Origin: Caldilineaceae bacterium
GTDB taxonomy: Bacteria > Chloroflexota > Anaerolineae > Caldilineales > Caldilineaceae
Assembly (NCBI GenBank): GCA_019637685.1
Contig: JAHBVF010000015.1
Coordinates: 7,875-71,874, forward strand
DNA length: 64,000 nucleotides
Direction of reading: 5' to 3'
The first letter of the stretch is position 1. The number at the start of each line of letters is the position of its first letter. A program made the position numbers and the translations under genes. A model generated the notes under the pieces. The model was not told the origin of the DNA, ran no database searches, and saw nothing but the letters and a program-made list of their open reading frames with translations. Of the stretch, positions 941 through 51,368 are shown in pieces.

Positions 941-1085
941 CAGACGTATTCTGCGCCGCTGGTTTCGACAAGCTCAACCGACGCTTTCTGGGTAGGTTGG
1001 GTCGCTGGTTTCGACCCTTCGACAGGCTCAGGCGATGTCCTGAGTTTATCCAAGGTACACCGCAAGCTCAACCGACGCTTTCAAA
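941..1085. repeat. copies/fragments of dispersed repeat family containing GGTTTCGAC and AAGCTCAACCGACGCTTTC motifs
   Basis: GCTGGTTTCGACAAGCTCAACCGACGCTTTC occurs near 963-993 and again as CGCAAGCTCAACCGACGCTTTC near 1057-1078. Same motifs at 31281-31345 and inside the MITE-like element at 45601-45762. Confidence 0.45.
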
Positions 1086-17920: not shown

Positions 17921-18156
17921 GCCGTTATCAGACTGGCAAAAGCCGTCATCACCAATCGCAAACGGGGGAGGGGGCGAAGAGCTACAGGTTGGAAGGGTCT
18001 GGTGATTTGTTGAGGCTACTGAGAACAGAGAATGATCCACGAAGCCACACGAAGTTGCACGAAGAATTTCGCGGAGTGTCACGCATTCAGCGCCAGTATG
18101 TGTGTCCACCTACGGCAGGGCGGACTTCTCGCCATATCAAAGTTGTGGCTCCCTCT

Positions 18157-18210
18157 GGGGCATTATTTCACTCTGTATAATGTAAATTATACAGAGTGAA
18201 ATAATGCCCC
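18157..18210. other. 23-bp perfect-stem palindrome GGGGCATTATTTCACTCTGTATA-loop-TATACAGAGTGAAATAATGCCCC
   Basis: Read directly. Sits in an ~800-bp AT-richer intergenic region ~300 nt upstream of the histidine phosphatase gene. No flanking T-tract. Confidence 0.5.
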
Positions 18211-18506
18211 AGACCCCGGTCCTGGGAATGCAGCCCCAATCCCTGCCCCCTGCTGCGCGCTGACCGATTTTTCGGCTGTAACCGAAGCGTGCAGATCATT
18301 GGCGACCAGCACAAGGATTGTGTGGCGAAAATCCAAGCTGCACCGGCTGTGCCACGAAGAATCTGCTGCCCAGTCGCAGCCCCAGCACCAATCTCCCGGC
18401 TTTTCCAGGCAACTTACCACCTGTCCCATTTGGCCCTCTCCCCTGCTTTCGGGTAGTCTATACTCCGGTTGAATCATCCATCCACCAACCGCAAGGAGCC
18501 AATGAA

Positions 18507-20008: not shown

Positions 20009-20067
20009 ACTGGAATATAACGGACACAGCGAAGGAAAAGGTGGCGACGCTTCACCTTTTCCTTCGC
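20009..20067. terminator. 25-bp perfect-stem hairpin (AACGGACACAGCGAAGGAAAAGGTG / CACCTTTTCCTTCGCTGTGTCCGTT) after thrH
   Basis: Read directly. 9-nt loop. Begins 14 nt after the thrH stop. Confidence 0.55.
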
Positions 20068-20241
20068 TGTGTCCGTTGGAATGGCTATTTGCGCTAAAGC
20101 TGCTGTGCCAATTGTGTGCCGCCTATCTTGAAAGAAACCCTCCTTCTGTGCTACGGTATTGGAAGCTATTATGTTGGGGCTGGGAAGTTAAGCTGATTTT
20201 TATTTTGTAGAATACTCTTGCCTAAGGTGCAGTAAGGTGCA

Positions 20242-24944: not shown

Positions 24945-25090
24945 TGGGAATTCAGGGGGTCTGGTATCAACCGTCTAGATCAGCGCTGATTGAGTAGACT
25001 GGAGCCGTTACCAGCCATATCGAAATCAAGCGGGTTACCCCTGAATTCCTGTTGAGCCAAAACACAGAAATGTGAGTGGAAACTTCCGCA
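24945..25090. terminator. convergent-gene terminator region with long-range inverted repeat GGGAATTCAGGGGGT / ACCCCTGAATTCC
   Basis: Inverted repeat enclosing ~80 nt between zwf (+) and the 916-aa membrane protein gene (-). Confidence 0.35.
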
Positions 25091-27844: not shown

Positions 27845-28003
27845 GGGGTGCTCCGCATTCGGTGGTCAAATCGGTTGTGTCAAGTTGGTTGTGCCAAGTC
27901 GTATAGCTTACGTTAGCACAGCTACTGGTGGCTTCCAAACGGGCATTTGCGCGTGTTCACCCCGCCGTTTGCACCACAGTTTACATCGCCATTTACACCA
28001 CAG

Positions 28004-28116
28004 GCGACACGACCGGCTGACACCGATAGCAGTGAAAATCATCCACAGATAGCACAGATTTTCACAGGTTGAATCCGTGTTCCCTTTTATCCGTGTATAC
28101 AACCCTATTTTCAGAA
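28004..28116. repeat. ~105-nt conserved 5'-leader element, copy 1 (upstream of glgP)
   Basis: CGACACGACCGGCTGACACCGATAGCAGTGAAAATCATCCACAGAT...GAATCCGTGTTCCCTTTTATCCGTGTATACAACCCTATTTTCAGAACAG. >90% identical to 45803-45904. Confidence 0.65.
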
Positions 28117-28231
28117 CAGTTCACACCATCCAATACGGGAAAAGTTGGCGTGATCGTGCCTTGTCGAGTACAATCGACAAGAGATTGCCATGCAACCGGT
28201 TGCCCGAATGCGCCTACAGGGAGAAAACTTT

Positions 28232-31280: not shown

Positions 31281-31345
31281 CCTTTTCGGAACCAAAGAGC
31301 CGGTAGACCCACTTGGTTTCGACAAGCTCAACCGGCGCTGATCAG
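31281..31345. repeat. fragment of dispersed repeat family (GGTAGACCC...GGTTTCGACAAGCTCAACCGGCGCT)
   Basis: Matches the internal segment of the MITE-like element at 45601-45762 and the repeats at 941-1085. Confidence 0.45.
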
Positions 31346-33594: not shown

Positions 33595-33960
33595 TATACG
33601 GTTGAAACCGCACAATCACCCGGAAACCGGAGGCTGACGGCGTGCCCACCAATCGTGCGGCTGCAAGCCGCACCTACGCATTCCCCCTACCGCACCCCAA
33701 AGACCTTCATCACCTCATCCCCCAAATGATTGATCACCTTCACCGCGATGCGCCTAAAGGCAGGCATCTGTAGGTGCGGTTTCCAACCGCACAATCACCC
33801 GGAAACCGGAGGCTGACGGCGTGCCCACCAATCGTGCGGCTTGCAGCCGCACCTACGCATTCCCCCTACCGCACCCCAAAGACCTTCATCACCTCATCCC
33901 CCAGATGATTGATCACCTTCACCGCAATGCGCCCGGAAGTGGGCTTGTCGAAGGGCCGGG
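33595..33960. repeat. tandem ~180-bp duplication comprising a REP doublet plus the last ~25 codons of mod
   Basis: Unit TTCCAACCGCACAATCACCCGGAAACCGGAGGCTGACGGCGTGCCCACCAATCGTGCGGCTGCAAGCCGCACCTACGCATTCCCCCTACCGCACCCCAAAGACCTTCATCACCTCATCCCCCA(A/G)ATGATTGATCACCTTCACCGC present twice (33602-33770 and 33782-33950). The second copy is the real mod 3' end. Confidence 0.75.
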
Positions 33961-36586
33961 AAATCTCGCTGTGCAGACTCTCCCAGGCTTCCTCGTCGAT
34001 CTCCGCCTTCAGCGTCGTCTTGAGCGAGCTGTAGGGGTCATTCGCCCCCAGAAAATAGGCGTGGCGCACAAAGAAGCTCTCCTCGTTGTAGTCCGTGTCG
34101 ATGAACCAGACCGCGATGTCATCCGGACCGCCCGACTGCACCTGGCCCGACTGGGGATGAAAGACATCCACCCCGTGAATCTGCACCCGGATTTGCCCGT
34201 CGCCCGTCGCCTGAATCTCGATGTCCGGCTCGCCGAAGATGACGAAGAGATTGCCCGCACCCGTGTTCTTGAGCGCATCGGCCATGTGCAGGTCCGCGTT
34301 CATGCGCGCTTTCAGCACAGGAATGCGCCCCAGCTTCTCGAACTCGGCGGAGTGGGCGTCGTAGTTGAAGGCGCAGGCGATCAGCACATCGAAGCCCGCA
34401 TCCCCCGCCTCCCTCGCCGCGGCCACCAGATCGGCCCTGGGCACAGTGCCAAACTCCGGGCCGATGAAGATGCCCGCCCGCCGCTCTTTGCCGTTCTCCC
34501 CCTCCTGATAGCGCCCCTCGGCGCACAGGTAATGGCCCGGCCAGCCGGTGAGGGTGGTGAAGCTGATGCGGTCCTCCTTGTGCGCCTGCTGTACCCCAGC
34601 CGTGCGCAGATTCTCCAAAATCACCTGGGTAAAGTCGATTTCGCTGGCGTACTTCTCCTTCTCCTCGTCGATAAAGTTGCCTGCGATCGGCTGCAACTCG
34701 TCGTTCTCGTCCACGGCCAGCACCCGGTGGGGCGAGAGCGACTCCACAGTGAAAGGCCCCGCCACCCGCACGGTATTGCGCTCCTCATAGGGTTTGTCGT
34801 AGAGGAACTCCTGATCCGAGTTGGCCGCAATCGAGGCGTCCATCTCCTGCTGGCGGGCGATGCGCTCGGTCCACCACGCCCCGTGCAGCTCTTTGGCCTG
34901 GGCCGACCACCCCTTCTCCGCCTCGCGGGGAATCTCCCACTCCTCCCAGGACTGGCCCAGAGCGGCGTTGAGCTGGCCGCGCAGGGGTTCCATCACCGCC
35001 TGAAACTGCTCCCAGATCACATCGATCTCGGCGTTGTTGGCGATGTCTTTGAGCATAATGTGGGGAACCCGCTCGTAGACAAAGCCGTGGCGGATGTTGC
35101 CGAAGGTGGGCGCAGTGGAGGGGGCGCTGCGGCTGACCTCCGCCTCTTTCAATTGCCCCGCCGGGGAATCGGCCAGCAGATAGTAGGGGTAGCGCGCCCC
35201 CATAATGCGGGCACGGGCCAGGGCCAGGGCCACCCGGCTGGTGTCGATGGTGATCCAGCGCCGCCCCCACTGCTCGGCGATATAGGCTGTGGTGCCAGAG
35301 CCACAAGTTGCGTCCAGCACAAGATCGCCCGGATCAGTGGTCATGAGAATGCAGCGTTGAATAACCCGCGTTGAGGTCTGTACTACGTAAATTTTGTCTT
35401 TGGCAAATGCACCAAACTGAGTATCCAGCCACCTATTATTCAAATTGGATACCGATCTTTCCGAGTAAAATTTCTTCACGCGAATTTGGGTTTCACTGAC
35501 CCTGACAATTCGATCTGCCTTTGCTATTCGATACATACCAACTGTATGTTCGTTACTCCAATGGCGAGCGGCTGATGGACGAAATTCCTGTCCTTGAAAT
35601 ACAAATACTTGCTCTTGGCTCGCTGCTCCCTGAGAGGTCAAATCTCCTAACTCGAAGCCGTCTTCATCCTGATTTTCTTTCGGCAAGAAGAGTGATCGAT
35701 ACTTCGTCTTGTCAGTTGCTTTTGCATACCATAAAACATAGTCGTTAACATTAGGAACGAAGTTCGATGTCCGGCCAGTGGAAGTGGCAAAACTAATGAG
35801 GGAAATGCAATTCTCCTCCCCAAAGACCTCATCCATCAGCGCCCGCACCCGATGCACATTCTCATCCCCGATCTGCACAAAGATCGACCCGCTCTCGGTC
35901 AGCAAATCTCGCGCCACGGTCAGCCGGTCGCGCAGATAGGTCAGATAGGAGTGAATGCCGTCCCGCCAGGTGTCCCGGAAAGCCTTCACCTGCTCCGGTT
36001 CCCGGGTGATGTGGTCGGCCTTGCCGTCCCGCACATCCCGGCTGGTGGTGGACCACTGGAAGTTGGAATTGAATTTGATGCCGTAGGGCGGGTCAATGTA
36101 GATGCACTGCACTTTGCCTCGCAGCCCCTCCCGCTCGGCCAGGCTGGCCATCACCTGCAAGCTGTCCCCCAGAATCATCCGGTTGGTCCAGTTGGCGTCG
36201 TGTTGATAAAAGTCCGTGGCCGTCGCCCCCTTCGGGATGCCGTTGAAGTCGGCGAAGAGGTCCAACTGCGCGGCCAACTCTTCCTGCCCGGCCGCGGCCC
36301 GTTCTGCACTCTGGCGCAGCAGGTCGTCGATCAGCACCTTCGGGTGTACCTTCTCCTGGATGTACAAGGGCGGCGCGGCCACCACCAGGTCGGACCAATC
36401 CTGCTCATCCTTGCCCCGCCAGACCAATTGGGGGTCCAAATCCCGGTTGCGCCGTGCATAGGCGATGCGGATGGGGCTTTTCTCCTCCTCCGCCATCACC
36501 GACTCGTATTCCGCGGTGGGGATGTTCGTGCGCCGGGCCTCGTCGTGTTTCAGGGTTTCTACGGTTTTGGGGGTGCGTGTCGCCAT
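33866..36586 (-). CDS. mod: Type III-like restriction-modification methyltransferase (Mod), N6-adenine/N4-cytosine DPPY class, long form
   Basis: 906 aa. DPPY catalytic motif (VQCIYIDPPYGIKFNSNFQ), C-terminal SAM-binding block LVLDATCGSGTTAYIAEQWGRRWITID, conserved N-terminal RRTNIPTAEY / PLYIQEKVHP blocks seen in Mod-type methylases, and a ~300-aa C-terminal extension. Confidence 0.85.
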   Translation of the reverse strand: MATRTPKTVETLKHDEARRTNIPTAEYESVMAEEEKSPIRIAYARRNRDLDPQLVWRGKDEQDWSDLVVAAPPLYIQEKVHPKVLIDDLLRQSAERAAAGQEELAAQLDLFADFNGIPKGATATDFYQHDANWTNRMILGDSLQVMASLAEREGLRGKVQCIYIDPPYGIKFNSNFQWSTTSRDVRDGKADHITREPEQVKAFRDTWRDGIHSYLTYLRDRLTVARDLLTESGSIFVQIGDENVHRVRALMDEVFGEENCISLISFATSTGRTSNFVPNVNDYVLWYAKATDKTKYRSLFLPKENQDEDGFELGDLTSQGAASQEQVFVFQGQEFRPSAARHWSNEHTVGMYRIAKADRIVRVSETQIRVKKFYSERSVSNLNNRWLDTQFGAFAKDKIYVVQTSTRVIQRCILMTTDPGDLVLDATCGSGTTAYIAEQWGRRWITIDTSRVALALARARIMGARYPYYLLADSPAGQLKEAEVSRSAPSTAPTFGNIRHGFVYERVPHIMLKDIANNAEIDVIWEQFQAVMEPLRGQLNAALGQSWEEWEIPREAEKGWSAQAKELHGAWWTERIARQQEMDASIAANSDQEFLYDKPYEERNTVRVAGPFTVESLSPHRVLAVDENDELQPIAGNFIDEEKEKYASEIDFTQVILENLRTAGVQQAHKEDRISFTTLTGWPGHYLCAEGRYQEGENGKERRAGIFIGPEFGTVPRADLVAAAREAGDAGFDVLIACAFNYDAHSAEFEKLGRIPVLKARMNADLHMADALKNTGAGNLFVIFGEPDIEIQATGDGQIRVQIHGVDVFHPQSGQVQSGGPDDIAVWFIDTDYNEESFFVRHAYFLGANDPYSSLKTTLKAEIDEEAWESLHSEISRPFDKPTSGRIAVKVINHLGDEVMKVFGVR

Positions 36587-36597
36587 TTGGATTGCCT

Positions 36598-37236
36598 TTG
36601 GTAGGTGCGGTTTTCAACCGCACATTTTCGATTGCCCCGTCAATATACGGGAATCGATTATCGTAGGTGCGGTTTGCAACCGCACGTTTTCGGAATGTCC
36701 CACATTGTGCGGGTTACGGATGGTGTGTGTGCGATTTGTAACCACAGATTCTTCGTCGTTCCCGCATTGTGCGGCTGCAAGCCGCACCTACGAATTGGAC
36801 GGTTGCCTTTTGTAGGTGCGGTTTGCAAAACCGCACATTTTCGGAATGTCCCACATCGTGCGGGTTACGAATGTTGTGTGTGCGATTTGTAACCGCACAT
36901 TCTTCGTCGTCCCCGCATCGTGCGGCTGCAAGCCGCACCTACGGGTTGGACGGTTGCCTTTGGTAGGTGCGGTTTGCAACCGCACATTTTCGGAATGTCC
37001 CACATCGGGCGGGTTACGGATGGTGTGTGTGCGATTTGTAACCGCACATTCTTCGCCATCCCCACATTGTGCGGCTGCAAGCCGCACCTACGGATTGGAC
37101 GGTTGCCTTTGGTAGGTGCGGTTTGCAACCGCACATTTTCGGAATGCCCCACATCGTGCGGGTTACGGATGATGTGTGTGCGATTTGTAACCGCACATTC
37201 TTCGTCATCCCCACATTGTGCGGCTGCAAGCCGCGC
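36598..37236. repeat. REP array L: ~4 tandem copies of a ~153-bp composite unit containing GTAG-type REP palindromes
   Basis: Unit GGTTGCCTTTGGTAGGTGCGGTTTGCAACCGCACATTTTCGGAATGTCCCACATCGTGCGGGTTACGGATGGTGTGTGTGCGATTTGTAACCGCACATTCTTCGTCGTCCCCGCATTGTGCGGCTGCAAGCCGCACCTACGGGTTGGAC repeated with few substitutions. Each unit has three hairpins. Ends at the RAYT stop. Confidence 0.85.
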
Positions 37237-37770
37237 CTACGGGTTGTCATCTTCGCTTTCTTGCCAATCGTATTCTGTGATGGATTCCGGCAATGCCCAT
37301 CCCCAGCCGTCGGGGTAGGCATTACGTTCCCGCCAGTGGTGGTAGCTGGAATGGGGCCAATCTTCCGGTCTGGCAACCAACCCGTGGTGCACCGGATTGT
37401 AATGGATGTAGTCCAGGTGGCGCTGAAAGTCGATTTCGTCCCGGATGATGTGGTCCCAGAATCCCTTTTGCCAGAAGTGCATTGGCCCAGAAGTTCCGAT
37501 TCGTTTTTTATACTCTTTGGTGAAATTCGGCTTGAGCGAATGCATAATATCGCTAAAATTGCTATCACCGGTGGGACGGATTAGCAGATGAAAGTGTTCG
37601 TGCAGAAAGACGTATCCCTGGGTGACAAAGGGGTGAAGCTCCTTCACATTGCCCAATATCTCACGCAAGAGGTCAAGATGCGTCTCTTCCCGAAAGACCG
37701 GGACACGGCGATCGACCACCTGCGTGATGAAGATGATTGCGTTGGGTACGTAATAACGTCGGATGTTCAT
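37237..37770 (-). CDS. REP-associated tyrosine transposase (RAYT; IS200/IS605-like Y1 HUH transposase)
   Basis: 177 aa. HUH motif HEHFHLLI and catalytic Tyr region FQRHLDYIHYNPVHHGLV. Flanked on both sides by REP arrays. Confidence 0.85.
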   Translation of the reverse strand: MNIRRYYVPNAIIFITQVVDRRVPVFREETHLDLLREILGNVKELHPFVTQGYVFLHEHFHLLIRPTGDSNFSDIMHSLKPNFTKEYKKRIGTSGPMHFWQKGFWDHIIRDEIDFQRHLDYIHYNPVHHGLVARPEDWPHSSYHHWRERNAYPDGWGWALPESITEYDWQESEDDNP

Positions 37771-37774
37771 ATTT

Positions 37775-38188
37775 TCCCGTGGGTGCGGTTTTCAACCGCA
37801 TAATTGTTGGCGTATCCATCATTTCCCAGGATTCGATACCTGTGCGGCTGCAAACCGCATCTACAATTTGAGATGTTGTGGGTACGGTTTTCAACCGCAC
37901 AATCGTCGGCGTTTCCTTCATTTGCCAGGACTCGGTACCGTTTTGTAGGTGCGGTTTTCAACCGCACAATCGTCGGCGTTTCCTTCATTTGCCGGGATTC
38001 GATACCTGTGCGGCTGCAAGCCGCACCTACAATTTGAGATGTTGTGGGTGCGGTTTTCAACCGCACAATCGTCGGCGTTTCCTTCATTTTCCGGGATTCG
38101 ATGCCTGTGCGGCTTGCAGCCGCACAATTGTCGGCCTTCCCGCCACCTACCGGAATTCGATACCTGTGCGGCTGCAAGCCGCACCTAC
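37775..38188. repeat. REP array R: ~3.5 tandem copies of a ~117-bp unit with REP doublets; last REP overlaps the res stop codon
   Basis: Unit TGTGGGTGCGGTTTTCAACCGCACAATCGTCGGCGTTTCCTTCATTTGCCGGGATTCGATACCTGTGCGGCTGCAAGCCGCACCTACAATTTGAGATGT. The final GCACCTAC provides the TAG stop of res. Confidence 0.85.
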
Positions 38189-41100
38189 AAAATGGCCGCT
38201 TCAATCAACTTGTTGAAATCCGCCTCAATCTCAAAGACGGCTTTGAACTCGGCAAACTGCCAGCGGCCCAGTGTGCCCAAATTGTTCACCCCCGGTACCC
38301 AATAGCTCTTCATCGTGTTGGACTTGTCCTTCACATCCTCGCCCCGAAAGCCCTTGATTTCCACCACCAGATTGAGCAGGTCAGCCCGCCCGTCGTCGAT
38401 CTGCACGATAAAGTCCGGGATATATGTGCGTTTGGTCGAGCCGTAGAGGTAGGGCACTTCCAGCCCCAAGCCCTGGTTCTTCACATAGGCCCGCACACGG
38501 GGATGGGCCTCGGCCACCCGGCAGAACTCGGATTCCCAGTCGCTGTCACAGACCACCCAGTTGATGTGGCAGTGCTGGGGAGATGTCTTCCAGCGGGTCT
38601 CTTTGGAGGTGTTGAAGTTGACGTGGATGGTGGAGCCGGTGGGGTTATAGGCGTCCAGAATCGCTTTGATGGGCCGGTCGTCGGCCATGGATTCGGTGAT
38701 GGCGGCGGCGATACGCTCACAGGCCATATCCCCTATCTCTCGGTAGATCAGTTGGGCCGGATACGTGCCACCGGTACAGCGCAGATAGCCCCCTTCCAAC
38801 CACTGCTGGGCAATGCGCTTCAACTGGCCGAAGAGATGCAGCTTGGGTTCTTCGCCCGGATCACGGAATTTGCTGTAGAGCAGATGCTTGGCCAGATGGT
38901 AGAGCAGCGTGGACTGGCGCATCCCTTCCAGATGCTTCACATTCAGGTCGATCCCTTCGCCGATAATGCCCTCGTTGCGGGTCACCGAAGGGCCGACCAG
39001 CAGCGGCGTCAACTCCAGCACAGAATCTGGGCCAAAGGTGGCCGTGAGCTTCTCTGCCGGCAGCTCCACCCGATAGCCCTCCACCCGGGGAAATTGAATC
39101 TCCAAAGCGTCCCGCTCTGGTCGCACAGCCATCACCTGCACGGTCTGTTTGGGTGGTTTGGGGGCCACCACCACTGGCTTGGCCGTGAAGTCAAAGGGGA
39201 TGCCGAAGACATCCGCATACTCCACATTGAACAGCCCCTCCTCGTTCAATTCGTAGGATTGGCGGCGCAGGGCGCGGCCCACCACCTGCTCGCACAGCAG
39301 TTGTGTACCAAAGGCCCGCACCCCCAGCACGTGGGTCACGGTGTTGCAGTCCCAGCCCTCGGTCAGCATGGAAACCGAGACCACACAGCGCACAGATTCG
39401 CCCAGCCGCCCTTCCTTGCCTACGGTATTCATCACCTCCCGCAGCAACTCCTGGTCGCTAATGTTCTGGCCGTCGGCCTGGTTGCCGCTGCGCTCCACAA
39501 TCTCCCGGCGAAAGCGTTCGATTTCGTCCGCCGCCATCTCCCGAAAATCGTTGTCCAGAGCGTCGCCGGACTCAAGCTGTTCGCTGTCGATGAGCAGGGT
39601 ATTGGGCCGGGCCAGCCGGTTGCCCCCTTCGTCGTAGTTGCGGAAGAGGGGCAGCCGTCCTGCATTGTAGGCTTCCGTCTCCCCATCTTCCCCCAGCCGT
39701 TGAAAGCCGGAGATATAGTCGTAGACCAGCTTGGAGGTGGAGGTGTTGTTGCAGACCACAATAAAGACCGGCGGCGTCCCAATCCCAGCCCCCTGCCAGA
39801 GATCGAATATCTTCTCGTAGTGGCCGTAGAGGGCATCCAGCGCGGTCTGAAGCTCGGCGGGCAAAGCCAGCGGGTCCAGATTCTTGCTGGCCTTGCCCCG
39901 CCCCTTCTTGGGCATCTTCTTGCCGATATGCTCCCATAGGTTGCGGAATTTGGGCATATCCCCGCCGGGGATATTGTCGGCCACAGGCACACGGGGCAGC
40001 TTGACAATCCCACACTCGATGGCGTCCATCAGGGAGAAGTCGCTGGCTGCCCAGGGAAAGAGGGTGCCTTCGGCATAGCCGGAGCCGCGCAGGAAGAAAG
40101 GCGTGGCCGAGAGGTCATAGACCTTCTGCACCCCCAGCTTGCGCTTGACCACTTCCAGCCCGGAAATCCACAACCGGGCGGCCTCGTTGGCCTTCTGGGC
40201 CTCCTTGCGGTCGTCCCCCTTCAAATCCTCAAAATCTTCGTTGTCCGGTTTCTCCCGGTAGCAGTGGTGGGCTTCGTCGTTGAGCACCAGCACATTCTTC
40301 ATGCCCATCAGTTCCGGCATCACCCGCTGGATCATTTGGCCTTCGCTCTCCAATGTCTGCAACTCCGGCCCTCGCCCTTGCAGAAATTCCCGGCTGGTCT
40401 TGGAGAGGCTCAGACGTTCGCGCAGTTTGAAGGAATGGTAGTTGGTGATGACGATTTTGGCCCGGTCCAGATCGCCCAGCATATCGCCGGGCACCAGCTC
40501 CCGGCTGCGGTAGTAGCTGTCCGGGTCGTTGGGGTGCAGCACCCGCAGGCGGTCCCGAATGGTGATACCCGGCGTCACAATCAGAAAGCCCCGGGTAAAG
40601 GCGCGGCTGCGGGGATGGCGCACCGCGTTGATGGTCTGCCAGGCAATCAGCATGGCCATCACTGTCGTCTTGCCTGCACCCGTAGCCAGCTTCAGCGCAA
40701 TCCGCAACAACTCCGGGTTGGCCTGTTCGCTGGCCCCCTGGAGCAGGTCCAGAGTTTCCTTGCCCTGGGCCGAATTGGGTGCGACCTCCGCCAGCCAGAT
40801 GGCCGTCTCCACCGCCTCCACCTGGCAGAAGAAGGGGCGAATGCCCTGAAAGGGATAGCTGCGCCAGTGTTGCAGCAGTCGCTGGGTCTCCGGCGTCACC
40901 CCCCACTTGCCGGGGTCGGGAATCTGCCGCCAGCGGTCCACCTGGGCGCGGATGGCGTTGATGTTGCCGGTGGTGTCGTATTGCTGCTCGTCCGTGGAGA
41001 TGCCCTCTTCTTCCCCCAGCACCAGGGCCAACTGTTGATCCTTCGACTTGCGCCGCTTCTTGGGCTTGGGCACAGGGGTCACAAACTTGGCCGTGCGCCG

Positions 41101-41238
41101 AAAGTCGAGAATCTGATTGGTGGGTTGGCCGTCTGCGTCCAGTTCCCAATGGCGGGCTGGGTAGGTGTAAGGGGAGTTAAGGATGGGTTTCTCGAAGAAT
41201 TGTTCTGTCATCGTGTTCCTATATTTACGCGGTTGCAC
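38185..41238 (-). CDS. res: Type III restriction enzyme Res subunit (SF2 helicase + endonuclease)
   Basis: 1017 aa. N-terminal FFEKPILNSPYTYP...TPETQRLLQHWRS block; Walker A LATGAGKT; DEAH box LVLNDEAHHCY; helicase motif VI region QVVGRALRR; C-terminal endonuclease-like domain. Confidence 0.85.
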   Translation of the reverse strand: MQPRKYRNTMTEQFFEKPILNSPYTYPARHWELDADGQPTNQILDFRRTAKFVTPVPKPKKRRKSKDQQLALVLGEEEGISTDEQQYDTTGNINAIRAQVDRWRQIPDPGKWGVTPETQRLLQHWRSYPFQGIRPFFCQVEAVETAIWLAEVAPNSAQGKETLDLLQGASEQANPELLRIALKLATGAGKTTVMAMLIAWQTINAVRHPRSRAFTRGFLIVTPGITIRDRLRVLHPNDPDSYYRSRELVPGDMLGDLDRAKIVITNYHSFKLRERLSLSKTSREFLQGRGPELQTLESEGQMIQRVMPELMGMKNVLVLNDEAHHCYREKPDNEDFEDLKGDDRKEAQKANEAARLWISGLEVVKRKLGVQKVYDLSATPFFLRGSGYAEGTLFPWAASDFSLMDAIECGIVKLPRVPVADNIPGGDMPKFRNLWEHIGKKMPKKGRGKASKNLDPLALPAELQTALDALYGHYEKIFDLWQGAGIGTPPVFIVVCNNTSTSKLVYDYISGFQRLGEDGETEAYNAGRLPLFRNYDEGGNRLARPNTLLIDSEQLESGDALDNDFREMAADEIERFRREIVERSGNQADGQNISDQELLREVMNTVGKEGRLGESVRCVVSVSMLTEGWDCNTVTHVLGVRAFGTQLLCEQVVGRALRRQSYELNEEGLFNVEYADVFGIPFDFTAKPVVVAPKPPKQTVQVMAVRPERDALEIQFPRVEGYRVELPAEKLTATFGPDSVLELTPLLVGPSVTRNEGIIGEGIDLNVKHLEGMRQSTLLYHLAKHLLYSKFRDPGEEPKLHLFGQLKRIAQQWLEGGYLRCTGGTYPAQLIYREIGDMACERIAAAITESMADDRPIKAILDAYNPTGSTIHVNFNTSKETRWKTSPQHCHINWVVCDSDWESEFCRVAEAHPRVRAYVKNQGLGLEVPYLYGSTKRTYIPDFIVQIDDGRADLLNLVVEIKGFRGEDVKDKSNTMKSYWVPGVNNLGTLGRWQFAEFKAVFEIEADFNKLIEAAIL

Positions 41239-41464
41239 CGATTTGGGCAGCCAGCGAACTGGTGATTATGTGTTCCTATCCTCGTCTTTGACTTCTAAGG
41301 TATCGATCCAACTCGGTTCTGTTTCCATTTCGTTATGTCACTTGGGGGGGCTCAAGCGCTGATTGCAGACCGAGCAGCGTTAGCCACGCTTTCGATTTAT
41401 CCCTGCGTAAGTCTAGCATAGAGTACTTGCCTGGACAATTGATTGCATGCAGCGTCGGAACCCC

Positions 41465-41762
41465 TGCACAAGCACCAGTCATCGCTGCACAACTACTCGT
41501 CATCATTGCACAAGCACCGGTCATCGCTGCACAAACACTCATCACCCCTGCACAGCCATCCACCATCACCGCGCAACTACTCGTCATCACTGCACAGCCA
41601 CCCATCATCGCCGCGCAAGCACTCATCATTGCCGCGCAAGCAGCAGTCACCAGCGCACAAACACTCGTCATCACTGCACAGCCACCCATCATCGCCGCGC
41701 AAGCACTCATCATTGCCGCGCAAGCAGCAGTCACCAGCGCACAAACACTCGTCATCACCACA
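41465..41762. repeat. 14-copy tandem repeat with 21-nt period (GCACAAnCACTCGTCATCnnn); all frames open
   Basis: Minus-strand frame gives heptads xxMxxCA (VMTSVCA LVTAACA AMMSACA AMMGGCA ...). Plus-strand frames give His/Cys-rich (CTSTSHR CTTTRHH ...) or xxIxAQx heptads. Units are not identical (substitutions between copies). Confidence 0.8.
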
Positions 41763-41821
41763 CAGACCCCGATTCCTAACCAGCCCTTTTCTTGGAGATT
41801 AAAGAATTGATCGGGCAATAG

Positions 41822-44053: not shown

Positions 44054-45535
44054 ATGACAGCCATCTGGTGGATTCGCCGGGACTTGCGCCTGGCTGATAA
44101 CAGGGCGCTGACCGAAGCTGTGCGGCAGGCGGACGCGGCAAAGGCCGGGGTGATTCCTCTCTTTGTCCTCGATCCGGTCCTGTTGGACTCGGTTTATGTG
44201 GGCCAAAAGCGGATCGATTTTCTGGTGGGTGGTCTGGCTTCACTACACGAAAGTTTGTTGCAGCGAGGCAGCCGCCTGGTTGTGCGCCGGGGCGACCCCT
44301 TGGCCGTGCTCCAGCAGGTGATGGCCGAGAGCGGCGCCACCGCCATCTATGCCCAGGCCGACCACTCGCCCTATGCCGTCCAGCGCGACGCCCGGATCAG
44401 CGCGGCTTTGCCCCTGCACCTGGTGGCCGGTGTGACCGCGCTGCTGCCGGGCACGGTTGCAAAAGCGGATGGCACGCCCTATACAGTCTTCACCCCATTC
44501 AAAAAGCGCTGGCTGCCCCTGTCCCCGGCAAGCCGGGAGCCGCTCTTGCCCAGCCCGGCGCGCCTCTCCACACCCGAATCCATTGCCAGCGAAGTTCTGC
44601 CTTCGCTGGCTGACACCCCGTCCTTCCCCCCTGGCGAAGAGGCGGCCTGGGCGCGCTTGACGGCTTTTACCCAGGGGGCGGACGTGTCTATCTTTGACTA
44701 CGCGAATACCAGGAATCGGCCCGATTGGGACGACACCTCCCGGCTCTCTCCCTATCTGCGCCTGGGGATGCTCTCCCCCCGCCAGGCATTGGTGGCCGCG
44801 CAGGCAGCCGGACAGCGGGCCGAGACACCGGCCCAGCGCGCCGGGGTGGAGATGTGGATTTCCGAGCTGATCTGGCGGGAGTTTTTTGTCTCGATTCTGC
44901 ATCATTTTCCCGGTGTGCGGCGGGCCAGCTTTCGCCCGGACTATGCGGAGATTGACTGGCGCAACGACCGGGACGAATTTGCGGCCTGGTGTACGGGGCG
45001 CACGGGCTATCCTTTTGTGGACGCGGCCCTGCGCCAGTTGACCACCACCGGCTGGATGCACAATCGGGCGCGGATGGTGGTAGCCTCCTTTCTGGTCAAG
45101 CACCTGCTCATCGACTGGCGCTGGGGCGAGCGCTTCTTTATGCAGCATCTGCTGGACGGGGACCCCGCGGCCAATAACGGGGGCTGGCAGTGGGTGGCGG
45201 GCACTGGCACCGACGCCGCTCCATATTTTCGGGTCTTCAACCCAATCACCCAGAGCCGCAAGTTCGATCCCGACGGCGTCTACATCCGGCGCTGGGTTCC
45301 CGAACTGGCGGACGTGCCCACACCCGCCATCCACACGCCCTGGAAGATGTCGGCCAGCGAGCAGGCACGGGCGGACTGTCATACCGGCACAGATTATCCC
45401 AACCCGCTTGTGGAGCACGCCTTCGCCCGCCAGCGGGCCTTGGAAACGTATAAGGCCGCACTGAACAGAACCAGAGCAACGCAGAGTCACAGGGGCGCGG
45501 ATTTACGCAGAGAAACGCAGATGAAATCCGTGTGA
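44054..45535 (+). CDS. phrB: deoxyribodipyrimidine photolyase (cryptochrome/photolyase family)
   Basis: N-terminal [20 protein letters not shown]-terminal FAD-binding region [33 protein letters not shown]...[16 protein letters not shown]. Confidence 0.9.
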
Positions 45536-45600
45536 ATCCGTCCCATCCGCGTTTATCCGTGTTCATCAGTGGCTTAAAAGGCTTTTTGTAGTAAAGTCAT

Positions 45601-45762
45601 CGTGACTATTCAGGCCAGCGCCGGTTGAGTAGGCCACGGTAGTATGTGGCCGTATCGAAACCAAAGCGGGTAGACCCGCAAACTGGTTTCGTTACGCCTG
45701 GAAACAGCCCCAGGCTACTCAACCGACGTTTGCTAACCGGCTGGCTTATGGCTGAATAGTCA
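45601..45762. mobile_element. MITE-like element: ~162 bp, imperfect ~40-bp terminal inverted repeats (GTGACTATTCAGG... / ...CTGAATAGTCAC) flanked by direct AAGTCATC
   Basis: Left end TAAAGTCATC|GTGACTATTCAGGCCAGCGCCGGTTGAGTAGGCC. Right end GGCTACTCAACCG...CCGGCTGGCTTATGGCTGAATAGTCAC|AAGTCATCC. Internal nested hairpins CGAAACCAAAGCGGGTAGACCCGCAAACTGGTTTCG and GCCTGGAAACAGCCCCAGGC. Confidence 0.6.
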
Positions 45763-45802
45763 CAAGTCATCCATGCATATCAGTATCTATTTATACATCA
45801 GT

Positions 45803-45904
45803 CGACACGACCGACTGACACCGATAGCAGTGAAAATCATCCACAGATTCTCACAGATTGAATCCGTGTTCCCTTTTATCCGTGTATACAACCCTATTTT
45901 CAGA
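45803..45904. repeat. ~105-nt conserved 5'-leader element, copy 2 (ends 15 nt before membrane-protein start codon)
   Basis: >90% identical to 28004-28116. A degenerate third relative (GAAATCCGTGTGAATCCGTCCCATCCGCGTTTATCCGTGTT) overlaps the photolyase stop at 45505-45560. Confidence 0.65.
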
Positions 45905-45919
45905 GCAGGAGTCCATTCC

Positions 45920-46969
45920 ATGAGCGTCACAAGTGCAAGTGAGTCCAGCCTGCCCAGCACCCGCGCAGAGGGCAAACTGCCGCGCAAAGATGTGCTGGCC
46001 CTGTGGGGTGGCATTATCTTCAGCACCCTTTTTACCGGCCTGATCTGGCTGGTGGGTGGACGGCTGGACGCGGTTCAACTGTTGCCCGATGCAGGGGCCA
46101 GTTGGTATTTGTGGAAGTTGCCCGAACCCACCTTCTGGAGTCGGGCCACAGCCTGGGGCTTCTATCTGGCCCATCAGGTTACCCTCTGGGGGCTTATTTA
46201 CTACGCGCAGAAGAACAAGACAAAATACACCACCGGTCTGCACCGGGTGAACCTGTGGGCGCTGGCCGCCAACGCCTCCTTCATCACCCTCCGTCTGGTC
46301 CAAACCCACGTCTGGTACGACGGTCTGGCCCAGGATGTCTCCATTTGGAGCAGCCAGGTGTCGGTGATTATTCTGCTGGTCTGGGTGCTGGTGATGGAGA
46401 ATCAGCGCCGCGGGCTTTTCTTTGGCAAGCCAGCCCCCTTCTCCAAAGAAGTGGTGCGCTTTGCCCGCACCTATCACGGCTACTATTTCGCCTGGGCGAC
46501 TATCTACACCTTTTGGTATCACCCCACCATCGCCACAAGCGGGCATCTCATCGGCTTCTTTTATATGTTCCTGCTGATGTTACAGGGCAGCCTCTTCTTC
46601 ACTCGCATCCACACCAACCGCTGGTGGACACTGGTGCAGGAATTCACTGTGCTGATCCACGGCACACTGGTGGCGGTGATGCAGGGCAACGGCATCTGGC
46701 CGATGTTTGCGTTTGGCTTTGCCGGTCTCTTTATCATCACCCAAATGCACGGGATCGGGCTTTCCCTGCGCAGCCGCATCGGATTGATCGGGGTCTTTGC
46801 GGCCAGTGTGATTTGGGTATACAGCGAGCGGGGCTGGGCACAGATCAATGAGATTATCCGTATTCCCGCCATCGATTACCTGGCCGTCTTTGCCCTGGCG
46901 GGTATCTTCTGGCTGGGGCTGGCCGTGGCCCGGCGTTTTCAGCCCGCCCCGGTGAGCGGGTCTCAGTGA
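45920..46969 (+). CDS. hypothetical polytopic membrane protein
   Basis: Start MSVTSASE after AGGAG RBS. ~8 TM helices; Trp/Tyr-rich. The track ORF start at 45773 lies inside the repeat and is rejected. Confidence 0.55.
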   Translation: MSVTSASESSLPSTRAEGKLPRKDVLALWGGIIFSTLFTGLIWLVGGRLDAVQLLPDAGASWYLWKLPEPTFWSRATAWGFYLAHQVTLWGLIYYAQKNKTKYTTGLHRVNLWALAANASFITLRLVQTHVWYDGLAQDVSIWSSQVSVIILLVWVLVMENQRRGLFFGKPAPFSKEVVRFARTYHGYYFAWATIYTFWYHPTIATSGHLIGFFYMFLLMLQGSLFFTRIHTNRWWTLVQEFTVLIHGTLVAVMQGNGIWPMFAFGFAGLFIITQMHGIGLSLRSRIGLIGVFAASVIWVYSERGWAQINEIIRIPAIDYLAVFALAGIFWLGLAVARRFQPAPVSGSQ

Positions 46970-48117: not shown

Positions 48118-48355
48118 ATCCAGGACAAACTGTAGTGATCAGGCTGATAGTGAAAGAAGCTGGACGCTGATTCACACGGAAGGACGCAGATTTTTTCTCC
48201 GGATCAGCGTCTATCTGCGTGAATCAGCGTCCCATTTTTTGTTCCACAGCCTTCGCGCAGGCCGATCGACCAATCCATTGGCTGGCCGGGCAACGTTACT
48301 TTGGATATACCCTGCTGCCGTGCACACCGTTCAGCCCAGCCCCCCTCAAAAGGAG

Positions 48356-49306: not shown

Positions 49307-49346
49307 ACACAGAGCGCAGGCGAATGATTGAGGAATAGTTCAATCC

Positions 49347-49392
49347 GAATCACCGGCCATTGTTCTCCGTGGGGAAGAATGGCCGGTGATTC
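49347..49392. terminator. ~20-bp stem hairpin GAATCACCGGCCATTGTTCTCC / GGGGAAGAATGGCCGGTGATTC
   Basis: Near-perfect inverted repeat 40 nt after the dienelactone hydrolase stop. Confidence 0.5.
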
Positions 49393-49487
49393 GTTATGCC
49401 TGCCCTTGGCTGTGAAGTGACGCCTACATATCTTTTGCCCGTTCACTTCTATCATTGCATCTACCCAACAGCTACGGATTGCACATA

Positions 49488-51261: not shown

Positions 51262-51368
51262 GGGGCCAATGGCCCCGTGCGGCCGGTCATTCGCGGACAA
51301 AAGTGAAGCGTGAATCGCAAAGGGCGGAACATCCCCATGCGGTTCGCGCTTCACTTTTCGATCTGTGG
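51262..51368. other. structured intergenic element: terminator-like GGGGCCAATGGCCCC plus 12-bp inverted repeat AAAAGTGAAGCG...CGCTTCACTTTT enclosing ~40 nt
   Basis: Read directly. Lies between folE and the next plus-strand gene. Confidence 0.4.

Follow-up and report, generated by a model that had tools for sequence, protein, structure and literature searches.

The spacer between a photolyase gene and a gene for a membrane protein without a Pfam match contains a compact palindromic sequence, and the question raised by this locus is whether it is a mobile element and, if so, of what kind. In the 64-kb stretch of DNA analyzed here (referred to throughout as the window), the sequence is intergenic and occupies 162 nt. 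The reading we rank first, with a probability of about 0.5, is that it is a non-autonomous, MITE-like foldback element, because its perfect ends and the 8-bp repeat abutting them form the signature of a staggered (DDE-type) cut. The coordinates of the features discussed are given in Table 1.

An earlier note on this DNA had reported an octamer flanking the element on both sides, and AAGTCATC is indeed found directly abutting each end. The sequence given for the element was also correct, while the coordinates (45601-45762) were one base too low. The flanking repeat is exactly 8 nt long, because the next bases differ both outward and inward. Terminal inverted repeats of ~40 bp had been proposed, of which the 12 terminal bases are perfectly complementary and a second block, C(C/T)GGTTGAGTAG and its neighbors, is ~85% complementary, but an insertion of ~18 nt in the right arm interrupts the two. 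Perfect 12-mer inverted pairs with a spacing of 60-400 nt are in themselves not unusual, shuffled windows containing 2.6 of them; for an exact 8-mer direct repeat to fall at both abutting positions, the chance is 4^-8, or ~1.5e-5. The only ORF in the 162 bp is a 54-aa frame, and it has no relatives among 5.8 billion proteins. As stated earlier, no transposase is associated with the element, its neighbors being the photolyase and the membrane protein, and no autonomous IS or transposase with matching ends was detected in the window or the fetched loci. A BLAST search of the element against plasmid and phage records gave no match. The element thus has the size of a MITE (162 bp, under ~500 bp), the lack of coding capacity and the terminal repeats (12/12 at the very ends), with no cognate transposase in the window or among plasmid and phage records.

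A scan of genome and metagenome contigs with a pattern consisting of the terminus, 5-30 nt and GGTTGAGTAG gave only two true relatives, L001 and L002, and the remaining hits (L003-L006) were rejected as chance matches in coding sequence. Both are uninformative on conservation of the terminus, since the search pattern demanded it. L001 is a 1.9-kb contig, binned as Nitrospirales, that carries hsdS and hsdM (type I restriction-modification). It matches the left arm of the element at 84 of 85 nt up to the terminus, diverges beyond it, and stops 43 nt past the center of the element. The terminus sits exactly at nt 127 of this MEGAHIT k=127 contig, which we infer to be what a repeat boundary branching the assembly graph would give. 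The contig may be mis-binned, because its repeats are typical of the Chloroflexota-like genome of the window. It also contains a heptamer tandem, (CGCAACT)n, at 236-290, between a promoter-like repeat (see below) and the 3' end of the S-subunit gene. The L002 arm has the same terminus and core with a different linker and P2 hairpin, and its similarity stops at the terminus, 1 base from the stop codon of a 921-aa gene. The flanks outside the termini read GATGACTT (the reverse complement of the left duplication) and AAGTCATC at the element, and ACAGATTT and GTTATGGC at the L001 and L002 arms, each of which has only one end visible. Since similarity halts at the terminus in both contigs and the outside flanks differ, AAGTCATC is flank and not part of the element.

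The nested hairpins described in the earlier note are borne out by the predicted folds. As RNA, the element has a minimum free energy (MFE) of -88.9 kcal/mol on the plus strand (z -7.8 relative to shuffles) and -94.5 kcal/mol on the minus strand (z -10.5), and as DNA of -50.3 kcal/mol (z -8.6). In the predicted shape, an outer stem and a second stem (CCGGTTGAGTAG with CTACTCAACCG) lead to a four-way junction that carries three hairpins. The arms are two inverted copies of a conserved hairpin module of ~55 nt, placed around a central palindromic hairpin, and the 162-bp element is an inverted dimer of this module rather than a generic IS remnant. A covariance model of the module (R1) was run over the window and the fetched loci, and its scores are included in Table 1.

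Table 1. Features of the element, its flanking genes, related module copies and the REPtron in the window
Feature	Position	Strand	Evidence or remark
Photolyase gene	44054-45535		upstream neighbor of the element
Left 8-bp direct repeat AAGTCATC	45594-45601	.	putative target-site duplication; abuts left terminus exactly
Element	45602-45763		162 nt
Left terminal inverted repeat GTGACTATTCAG	45602-45613	+	12/12 complementary to right end
Hairpin module copy 1	45615-45670	+	cmsearch R1: 56 bits, E 3e-13; folds alone as P1/P2
Copy 1, P1: GGTT with AACC	45623-45626 with 45659-45662	+
Copy 1, core GAGTAG	45627-45632	+
Copy 1, P2 hairpin GCCACGGTAGTATGTGGC	45633-45650	+
Copy 1, C-GTATCGA	45651-45658	+
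Central hairpin CGAAACCAAAGCGGGTAGACCCGCAAACTGGTTTCG	45655-45690	.	axis of the dimer; RNA and DNA folds
Near-palindrome GCGGGTAGACCCGC	45666-45679		within central hairpin
Hairpin module copy 2, inverted	45677-45732	-	cmsearch R1: 55.5 bits, E 4e-13; folds alone
Copy 2, 3' core variant GTAACGA	45689-45695		reverse complement of these positions
Copy 2, P2	45697-45714
Copy 2, GAGTAG	45715-45720		reverse complement of these positions
Right terminal inverted repeat CTGAATAGTCAC	45752-45763	-	12/12 complementary to left end
Right 8-bp direct repeat AAGTCATC	45764-45771	.	abuts right terminus exactly
Membrane-protein gene	45920-46969		no Pfam match; downstream neighbor of the element
Copy B, diverged single-module relative	24946-25050	+	bounded by perfect 12-bp inverted repeat GGAATTCAGGGG/CCCCTGAATTCC
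Copy B module	24980-25035	+	cmsearch R1: 44 bits, E 6e-10; compensatory P1 GATT/AATC
P2-less mini form GGTTGAG-CTTG-TCGAAACC	31307-31341	-	R1: 24.5 bits, E 4e-4
P2-less mini form	953-987	-	R1: 23.3 bits, E 1e-3
Related mini core CCTGAGCCTGTCGAAGG	1016-1032
Partial repeat near mini form	1067-1080		near 953-987
REPtron parts	33600-33950, 36590-37250, 37237-37770, 37780-38200		37237-37770 (minus strand), RAYT-type gene

The module has the layout P1(..GGTT)-GAGTAG-(variable hairpin P2)-C-N-TATCGA-(AACC..)P1'. In an alignment of five arms, ATTCAG is followed by a variable linker, then by C(C/T)G(G/A)TTGAGTAG, a hairpin whose sequence varies, and C-N-TATCGAAA(C/T)C. A scan of IMG/VR with GTTGAGTAG-N14-34-TATCGAAA retrieved 76 loci, about half of them chance matches in AT-rich coding sequence, and the remaining loci share an obvious common structure, often with several copies per contig. 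In the resulting alignment (A2, 33 distinct copies), the consensus is P1 (variable, ending GGTT), GAGTA, G(P2)C, N-TATCGA, and AACC with the rest of P1'. Standard pairs are formed by 87% of the A2 cells, compared to 72% in shuffles, and the covariation score is 0.357, against 0.083 in shuffles (0/500 reach 0.357) and 0.06-0.10 with a slid partner. Each of the four P2 pairs occurs as four pair types, essentially without mismatches, and compensatory changes in P1 include GGTC/GACC in three independent copies, AATT/AATT once, and the GATT/AATC of copy B. GAGTAG and P2 are present in all arms and in the 33 aligned copies; the invariance of TTGAGTAG and TATCGAAA was largely imposed by the search pattern, which did not dictate the flanking GG/CC, the G-C pair that closes P2 or the U-rich loop of P2.

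Locally, the core could contain tandem G.A pairs; the alternative, predicted by ViennaRNA, is a GA bulge together with G-C and A-U pairs. Likenesses of the core to tRNA, a k-turn or loop E are guesses. A hammerhead ribozyme was considered and rejected: UUGAGUAG..CGAAAC is superficially like CUGAUGAG..CGAAAC, but there is no third stem and no Rfam match, C3 and G8 are not kept, and five additional nucleotides precede GAAA. An integron attC site, for which GTTGAGT fits GTTRRRY, was rejected because the box order is reversed and a cassette context is absent. In searches of Rfam 15, neither the window nor 16 module-bearing loci reached the gathering score of any family, and with E up to 5-10 the window and module loci gave only unrelated, snoRNA-like chance matches.

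Besides the full-length element, the window holds one diverged monomer and several mini forms. The monomer, copy B, lies between a convergent G6PD gene and a gene for a 916-aa membrane protein; its inverted repeat has ATTCAGG in common with the termini of the main element, and no flanking duplication was found. This suggests that the genome has a family of elements with one or two modules inside ATTCAGG-type inverted ends, in which the 162-bp dimer would have arisen recently and copy B earlier. That copy B and L002 derive from an orthologous insertion was rejected, as the adjacent proteins of ~920 aa are 26% identical, a paralogue-level value. The mini forms read GGTTGAG-CYTG-TCGAAACC, the reverse complement being the GGTTTCGACAAGCTCAACC of the earlier note, and the one at 31307-31341 also has the extended flanks of the element arms (CAGCGCC..AACCAAGTGGGT). 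The string GGTTTCGACAAGCTCAACCG(A/G)CGCT occurs at 961-985 and 31315-39, with 0 expected by chance. It had been proposed that segments at 31281-31345 and 941-1085 are deletion variants of the element. They do recur, but their R1 matches are P2-less minis, and therefore they belong to the module family and are not deletion derivatives of the 162-bp unit. A multi-copy family was also proposed; one with the same termini is not established within the window, because the 12-mer terminus occurs nowhere else in the 64 kb. R1 found no relatives of the module in ~120 kb of related Anaerolineae loci (L007-L017).

The module is more widespread in viruses. R1 located ~50 copies in tailed-phage contigs, together with additional variant copies, in short gaps between head and packaging genes and in either orientation. 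The sites include the terminase/portal gap (L066, L024), the protease/major capsid gap (L031), the position after the capsid gene (L023) and the vicinity of head-morphogenesis genes (L088). Copies lie 20-50 nt upstream of start codons in late operons, with ~6 independent cases antisense and 3 sense relative to the flanking genes. Four related contigs (L060, L069, L079 and L091) carry an identical module in diverged flanking coding sequence, the homologous loci L062 and L082 retain the core with an exchanged P2, and three 55-nt copies stand in tandem in L038, compared to one in its relative L021. The latter pair was considered as a case of a clean empty site and rejected, the spacers being non-homologous. 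No flanking duplications were found at dispersed phage copies (L038, L020), nor terminal inverted repeats of the element's kind at the phage copies, and searches of the phage contigs for inverted dimers like the element gave only chance matches. No mobilizing enzyme was found near the phage copies, the shared genes being structural (terminase, portal, protease, capsid, tape measure), and a Y1 homologue is absent from all module-bearing phage loci. Extended flanks (..AGCGCCGGTT ... AACCAAGCGG..) are common to the copies of the window and those of L036, L042, L062 and L082, a hint that these phages are connected with this host lineage.

A smaller hairpin, CCTGAGCTTGTCGAAGG, typically in the context ccgttcgcCCTGAGCTTGTCGAAGGgcgaacgg, is far more numerous, and at least 120 phage contigs in IMG/VR carry the exact 17-mer, with a GGTT/AACC version in 11 phage contigs. 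It usually lies inside ccgttcgc...gcgaacgg, often with a GGTTCGACAGGCTCACC partner (L098-L216, e.g., L145, L133, L105), and is also present at 1016-1032 of the window. The mini hairpins and the module have a common core, N4-GAG-CYTG-TCGA-N4', with a covarying outer stem, and the GGTTGAGCTTGTCGAAACC copies of the window are the mini-hairpin form with GGTT/AACC as P1; mini hairpins differ from the module in lacking the GTAG-P2 expansion. In L002 (100-147), the P2 hairpin is itself a mini hairpin of the same superfamily, nested in the opposite orientation (GCTGCCC-TGAGCCTGTCGAA-GGGCAGC). The mini hairpins have no Rfam match, and searches by sequence and by translated repeat peptides found no published name or description.

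Two classes of bacterial repeats are relevant to the nature of the element. Hairpin MITEs such as Correia/NEMIS of Neisseria, ERIC/IRU and YPAL of enterobacteria, RUP of S. pneumoniae and Nezha of cyanobacteria are near-palindromic, non-coding, intergenic sequences of 70-300 bp that end in inverted repeats and duplicate their target, and their co-transcription is expected to yield strong RNA stem-loops (PMC3733652). The element resembles them in being small, non-coding, intergenic and near-palindromic, with inverted termini and an 8-bp flanking repeat. It differs in that its perfect termini are just 12 bp, no parent IS is known, and its interior consists of two copies of a covarying module that is also found alone and in phages. 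The target duplication of Correia elements is TA, and the putative one of the element is 8 bp. Against the MITE-like reading, a single full-length copy is known, so the 8-bp duplication is one observation. Covariation of internal hairpins, a GTAG tag and free-standing single arms are more typical of repeats of the REP/RAYT or IS200/IS605 type than of IS-derived MITEs.

The second class comprises the GTAG-tagged REP, REPIN and BIME repeats mobilized by RAYT (Di Nocera et al. 2013, PMC3733652; Nunvar et al. 2010, PMC2817692). The module is like REPs in its GTAG tag 5' of a GC-rich stem-loop, its covarying stems, and its occurrence as singlets, as head-to-head heterodimers 20-100 bp apart and in tandem clusters, and REPs occur in Chloroflexi. 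It is unlike them in that its conserved core extends further to either side of the hairpin (GGTTGAGTAG ... C-N-TATCGAAACC), in having an outer stem P1, and in having copies in tailed-phage structural operons. The element could be a REPIN-like head-to-head heterodimer of GTAG-tagged REP-type hairpins, moved as folded ssDNA by an HUH/Y1 (RAYT-like) enzyme, in which case the 8-bp flanking repeat would be incidental. We regard this as unlikely, though it survives best among the alternatives. Each arm has GAGTAG directly 5' of a GC-rich hairpin with a covarying stem; singlets, inverted dimers and tandem arrays (three copies in L038 against one in L021) are all seen; dispersed phage copies lack duplications; and the window itself contains a Y1_Tnp gene. 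REPs with a GTAG tag, heterodimers in head-to-head arrangement and the occurrence of REPs in Chloroflexi have been described (PMC3733652). However, the RAYT of the window is flanked by a different REP (GTAGGTGCGGTTTGCAACCGCAC) and not, as in a REPtron for the module, by the module itself; the GTAGGTGCGG..CCGCAC repeats on its flanks have no similarity to the module, and module-bearing phage loci are without a Y1 homologue. In addition, Y1 transposition leaves no duplication, against which stands the exact abutting octamer with its chance probability of ~1.5e-5, and the perfect 12-bp ends, which REPINs do not have, lie outside the REP-like part of the element.

Somewhat less probable again is that the ~55-nt module functions as an RNA, for example in protein binding, processing or stability or as a ribozyme-like motif missing from catalogues, with mobility secondary and the dimer presenting one sense copy whichever strand is transcribed. 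The covarying stems, the conserved unpaired core and U-rich P2 loop (UGYUNUU-like), the identical modules in diverged coding sequence, the exchange of P2 with retention of the core in L062 and L082, and the position of the module upstream of late-operon start codons are all consistent with this, and since Rfam has no match, such an RNA would be new. The mixed orientation (~6 antisense, 3 sense) is hard to square with a strand-specific RNA core, however, and TTGAGTAG and TATCGAAA look invariant largely because the search demanded exact matches to its pattern. The P2-less minis and nested copies (as in the P2 of L002) resemble the behavior of repeat elements, and no consistent gene association was found. 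A broader proposal, which we make only tentatively and regard as unlikely, is that the module and its P2-less mini form are an uncatalogued functional nucleic-acid element of Chloroflexota-like chromosomes and tailed phages, which could be the recognition hairpin of a single-strand-specific mobilizing or processing enzyme, or a new structured RNA. An immobile palindrome formed by chance or locally (slippage, template switching), with coincidental octamers, would agree with the single full copy and the frequency of 12-mer inverted pairs within 400 nt in shuffled windows (~2.6), but is very improbable given the fold z-scores of -8 to -10, the exact abutting repeat (~1.5e-5), a near-identical arm in an unrelated contig beside type I restriction-modification genes, and the match of both arms to the family model at E ~1e-13.

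Under the MITE-like foldback reading, the 162-bp unit would have been inserted whole by a transposase encoded elsewhere in the genome, which would have recognized GTGACTATTCAG at the ends and cut AAGTCATC with a stagger of 8 bp. Duplications of 8 bp are given by the IS1595, ISL3, IS6, IS66 and IS256 families. Before insertion, the site would read ..GTAGTAAAGTCATCCATGC.., and an empty allele at the photolyase locus ..GGCTTTTTGTAGTAAAGTCATCCATGCATATC... The module inside (GGTT-GAGTAG-hairpin-C-N-TATCGA-AACC) may be a REP-like unit that selection maintains for its fold. Because the module is found in both orientations relative to genes, its level of action is probably DNA or single-stranded DNA, or it is simply a hairpin whose orientation does not matter. 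Transcription from the photolyase side would yield a very stable four-way-junction RNA (~-89 kcal/mol), which could separate the photolyase gene from the promoter-like repeat of the next gene as a 3' barrier or insulator.

On its own, the element is a further example of a small palindromic mobile repeat, in an Anaerolineae-like genome that is poorly sampled. Of more use is the module within it, a conserved, covarying hairpin missing from Rfam, which ties the chromosomal repeats of this lineage to the intergenic hairpins of tailed-phage head and packaging operons, and also to the very abundant class of mini hairpins. If the phage link is true, the module could serve as a marker for phage-host assignment in Chloroflexota and as a tractable family for studying how REP-like hairpins spread and what recognizes them, and the element would be an example of such hairpins riding within a transposon-like shell. 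If the module is indeed an uncatalogued functional element, the 162-bp sequence would show that it can take the form of a foldback transposon having ends of its own and a duplication of 8 bp.

The element has enlarged the spacer between the photolyase gene and its neighbor. The spacer is 384 bp, compared to 65 bp in L008 and 61 bp in L007, where the gene order is the same; the proteins of these two loci are ~80% identical to those of the window, too diverged for a clean empty site. The closest relatives of the downstream membrane protein are at most 83% identical and come from Anaerolineales- and Ardenticatenaceae-type metagenome bins, which points to a host of the Chloroflexota/Anaerolineae kind. 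The ~320 bp by which the spacer exceeds those of related genomes are a three-part patchwork of palindromic repeats, the 162-bp element with its duplication, and a promoter-like repeat of ~120 bp. The ATCCGTGT/ACGCAGA-type palindromic repeats overlap the stop codon of the photolyase gene. Repeats of the ACGCAGAT / ATCCGCGT-ATCCGTGT type occur at 45472-45570 and 48162-48232, and the former appears to make the photolyase ORF ~20 codons longer than its L007 and L008 orthologues. The ~120-bp repeat (45789-45908, ending ..AATCCGTGTTCCCTTTTATCCGTGTATACAACCCTATTTTCAGAGCAGGAG) recurs at 27991-28119 with 87% identity, and is also found in L001 (127-189), where it directly adjoins the terminus of the element's arm, and in L009 (1-47), before the orthologous gene. 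It sits 12-70 nt upstream of the start codons of unrelated genes, and looks like a common promoter or 5'-leader cassette.

Several other repeats are present in the window. The Y1_Tnp gene specifies a 177-aa protein (IS200-like, RAYT-type) and forms a REPtron with BIME-like arrays on both sides, in which the GTAG-tagged REP GTAGGTGCGGTTTGCAACCGCAC alternates in orientation with periods of 149 and 166 nt. An additional pair of GTAGGTGCGGTTTGCAACCGCAC-type REPs lies at 33606-33933, and the arrays bracket a DNA methylase gene (33866-36586) and a ResIII/endonuclease gene (38185-41238). Other long intergenic palindromes, unrelated in sequence to the element, occur at 18154-18213, 20019-20077, 49346-49393 and 51299-51358; these are perfect or near-perfect, with perfect arms of 28 nt and 25 nt. 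A tandem array at 41460-41773 (21/42/84-nt period, ~14 copies of a 21-mer) lies in a minus-strand ORF of 174 aa without a Pfam match, and a G-rich tandem array with a 43-nt unit is found at 519-660, upstream of the first mini-hairpin cluster.
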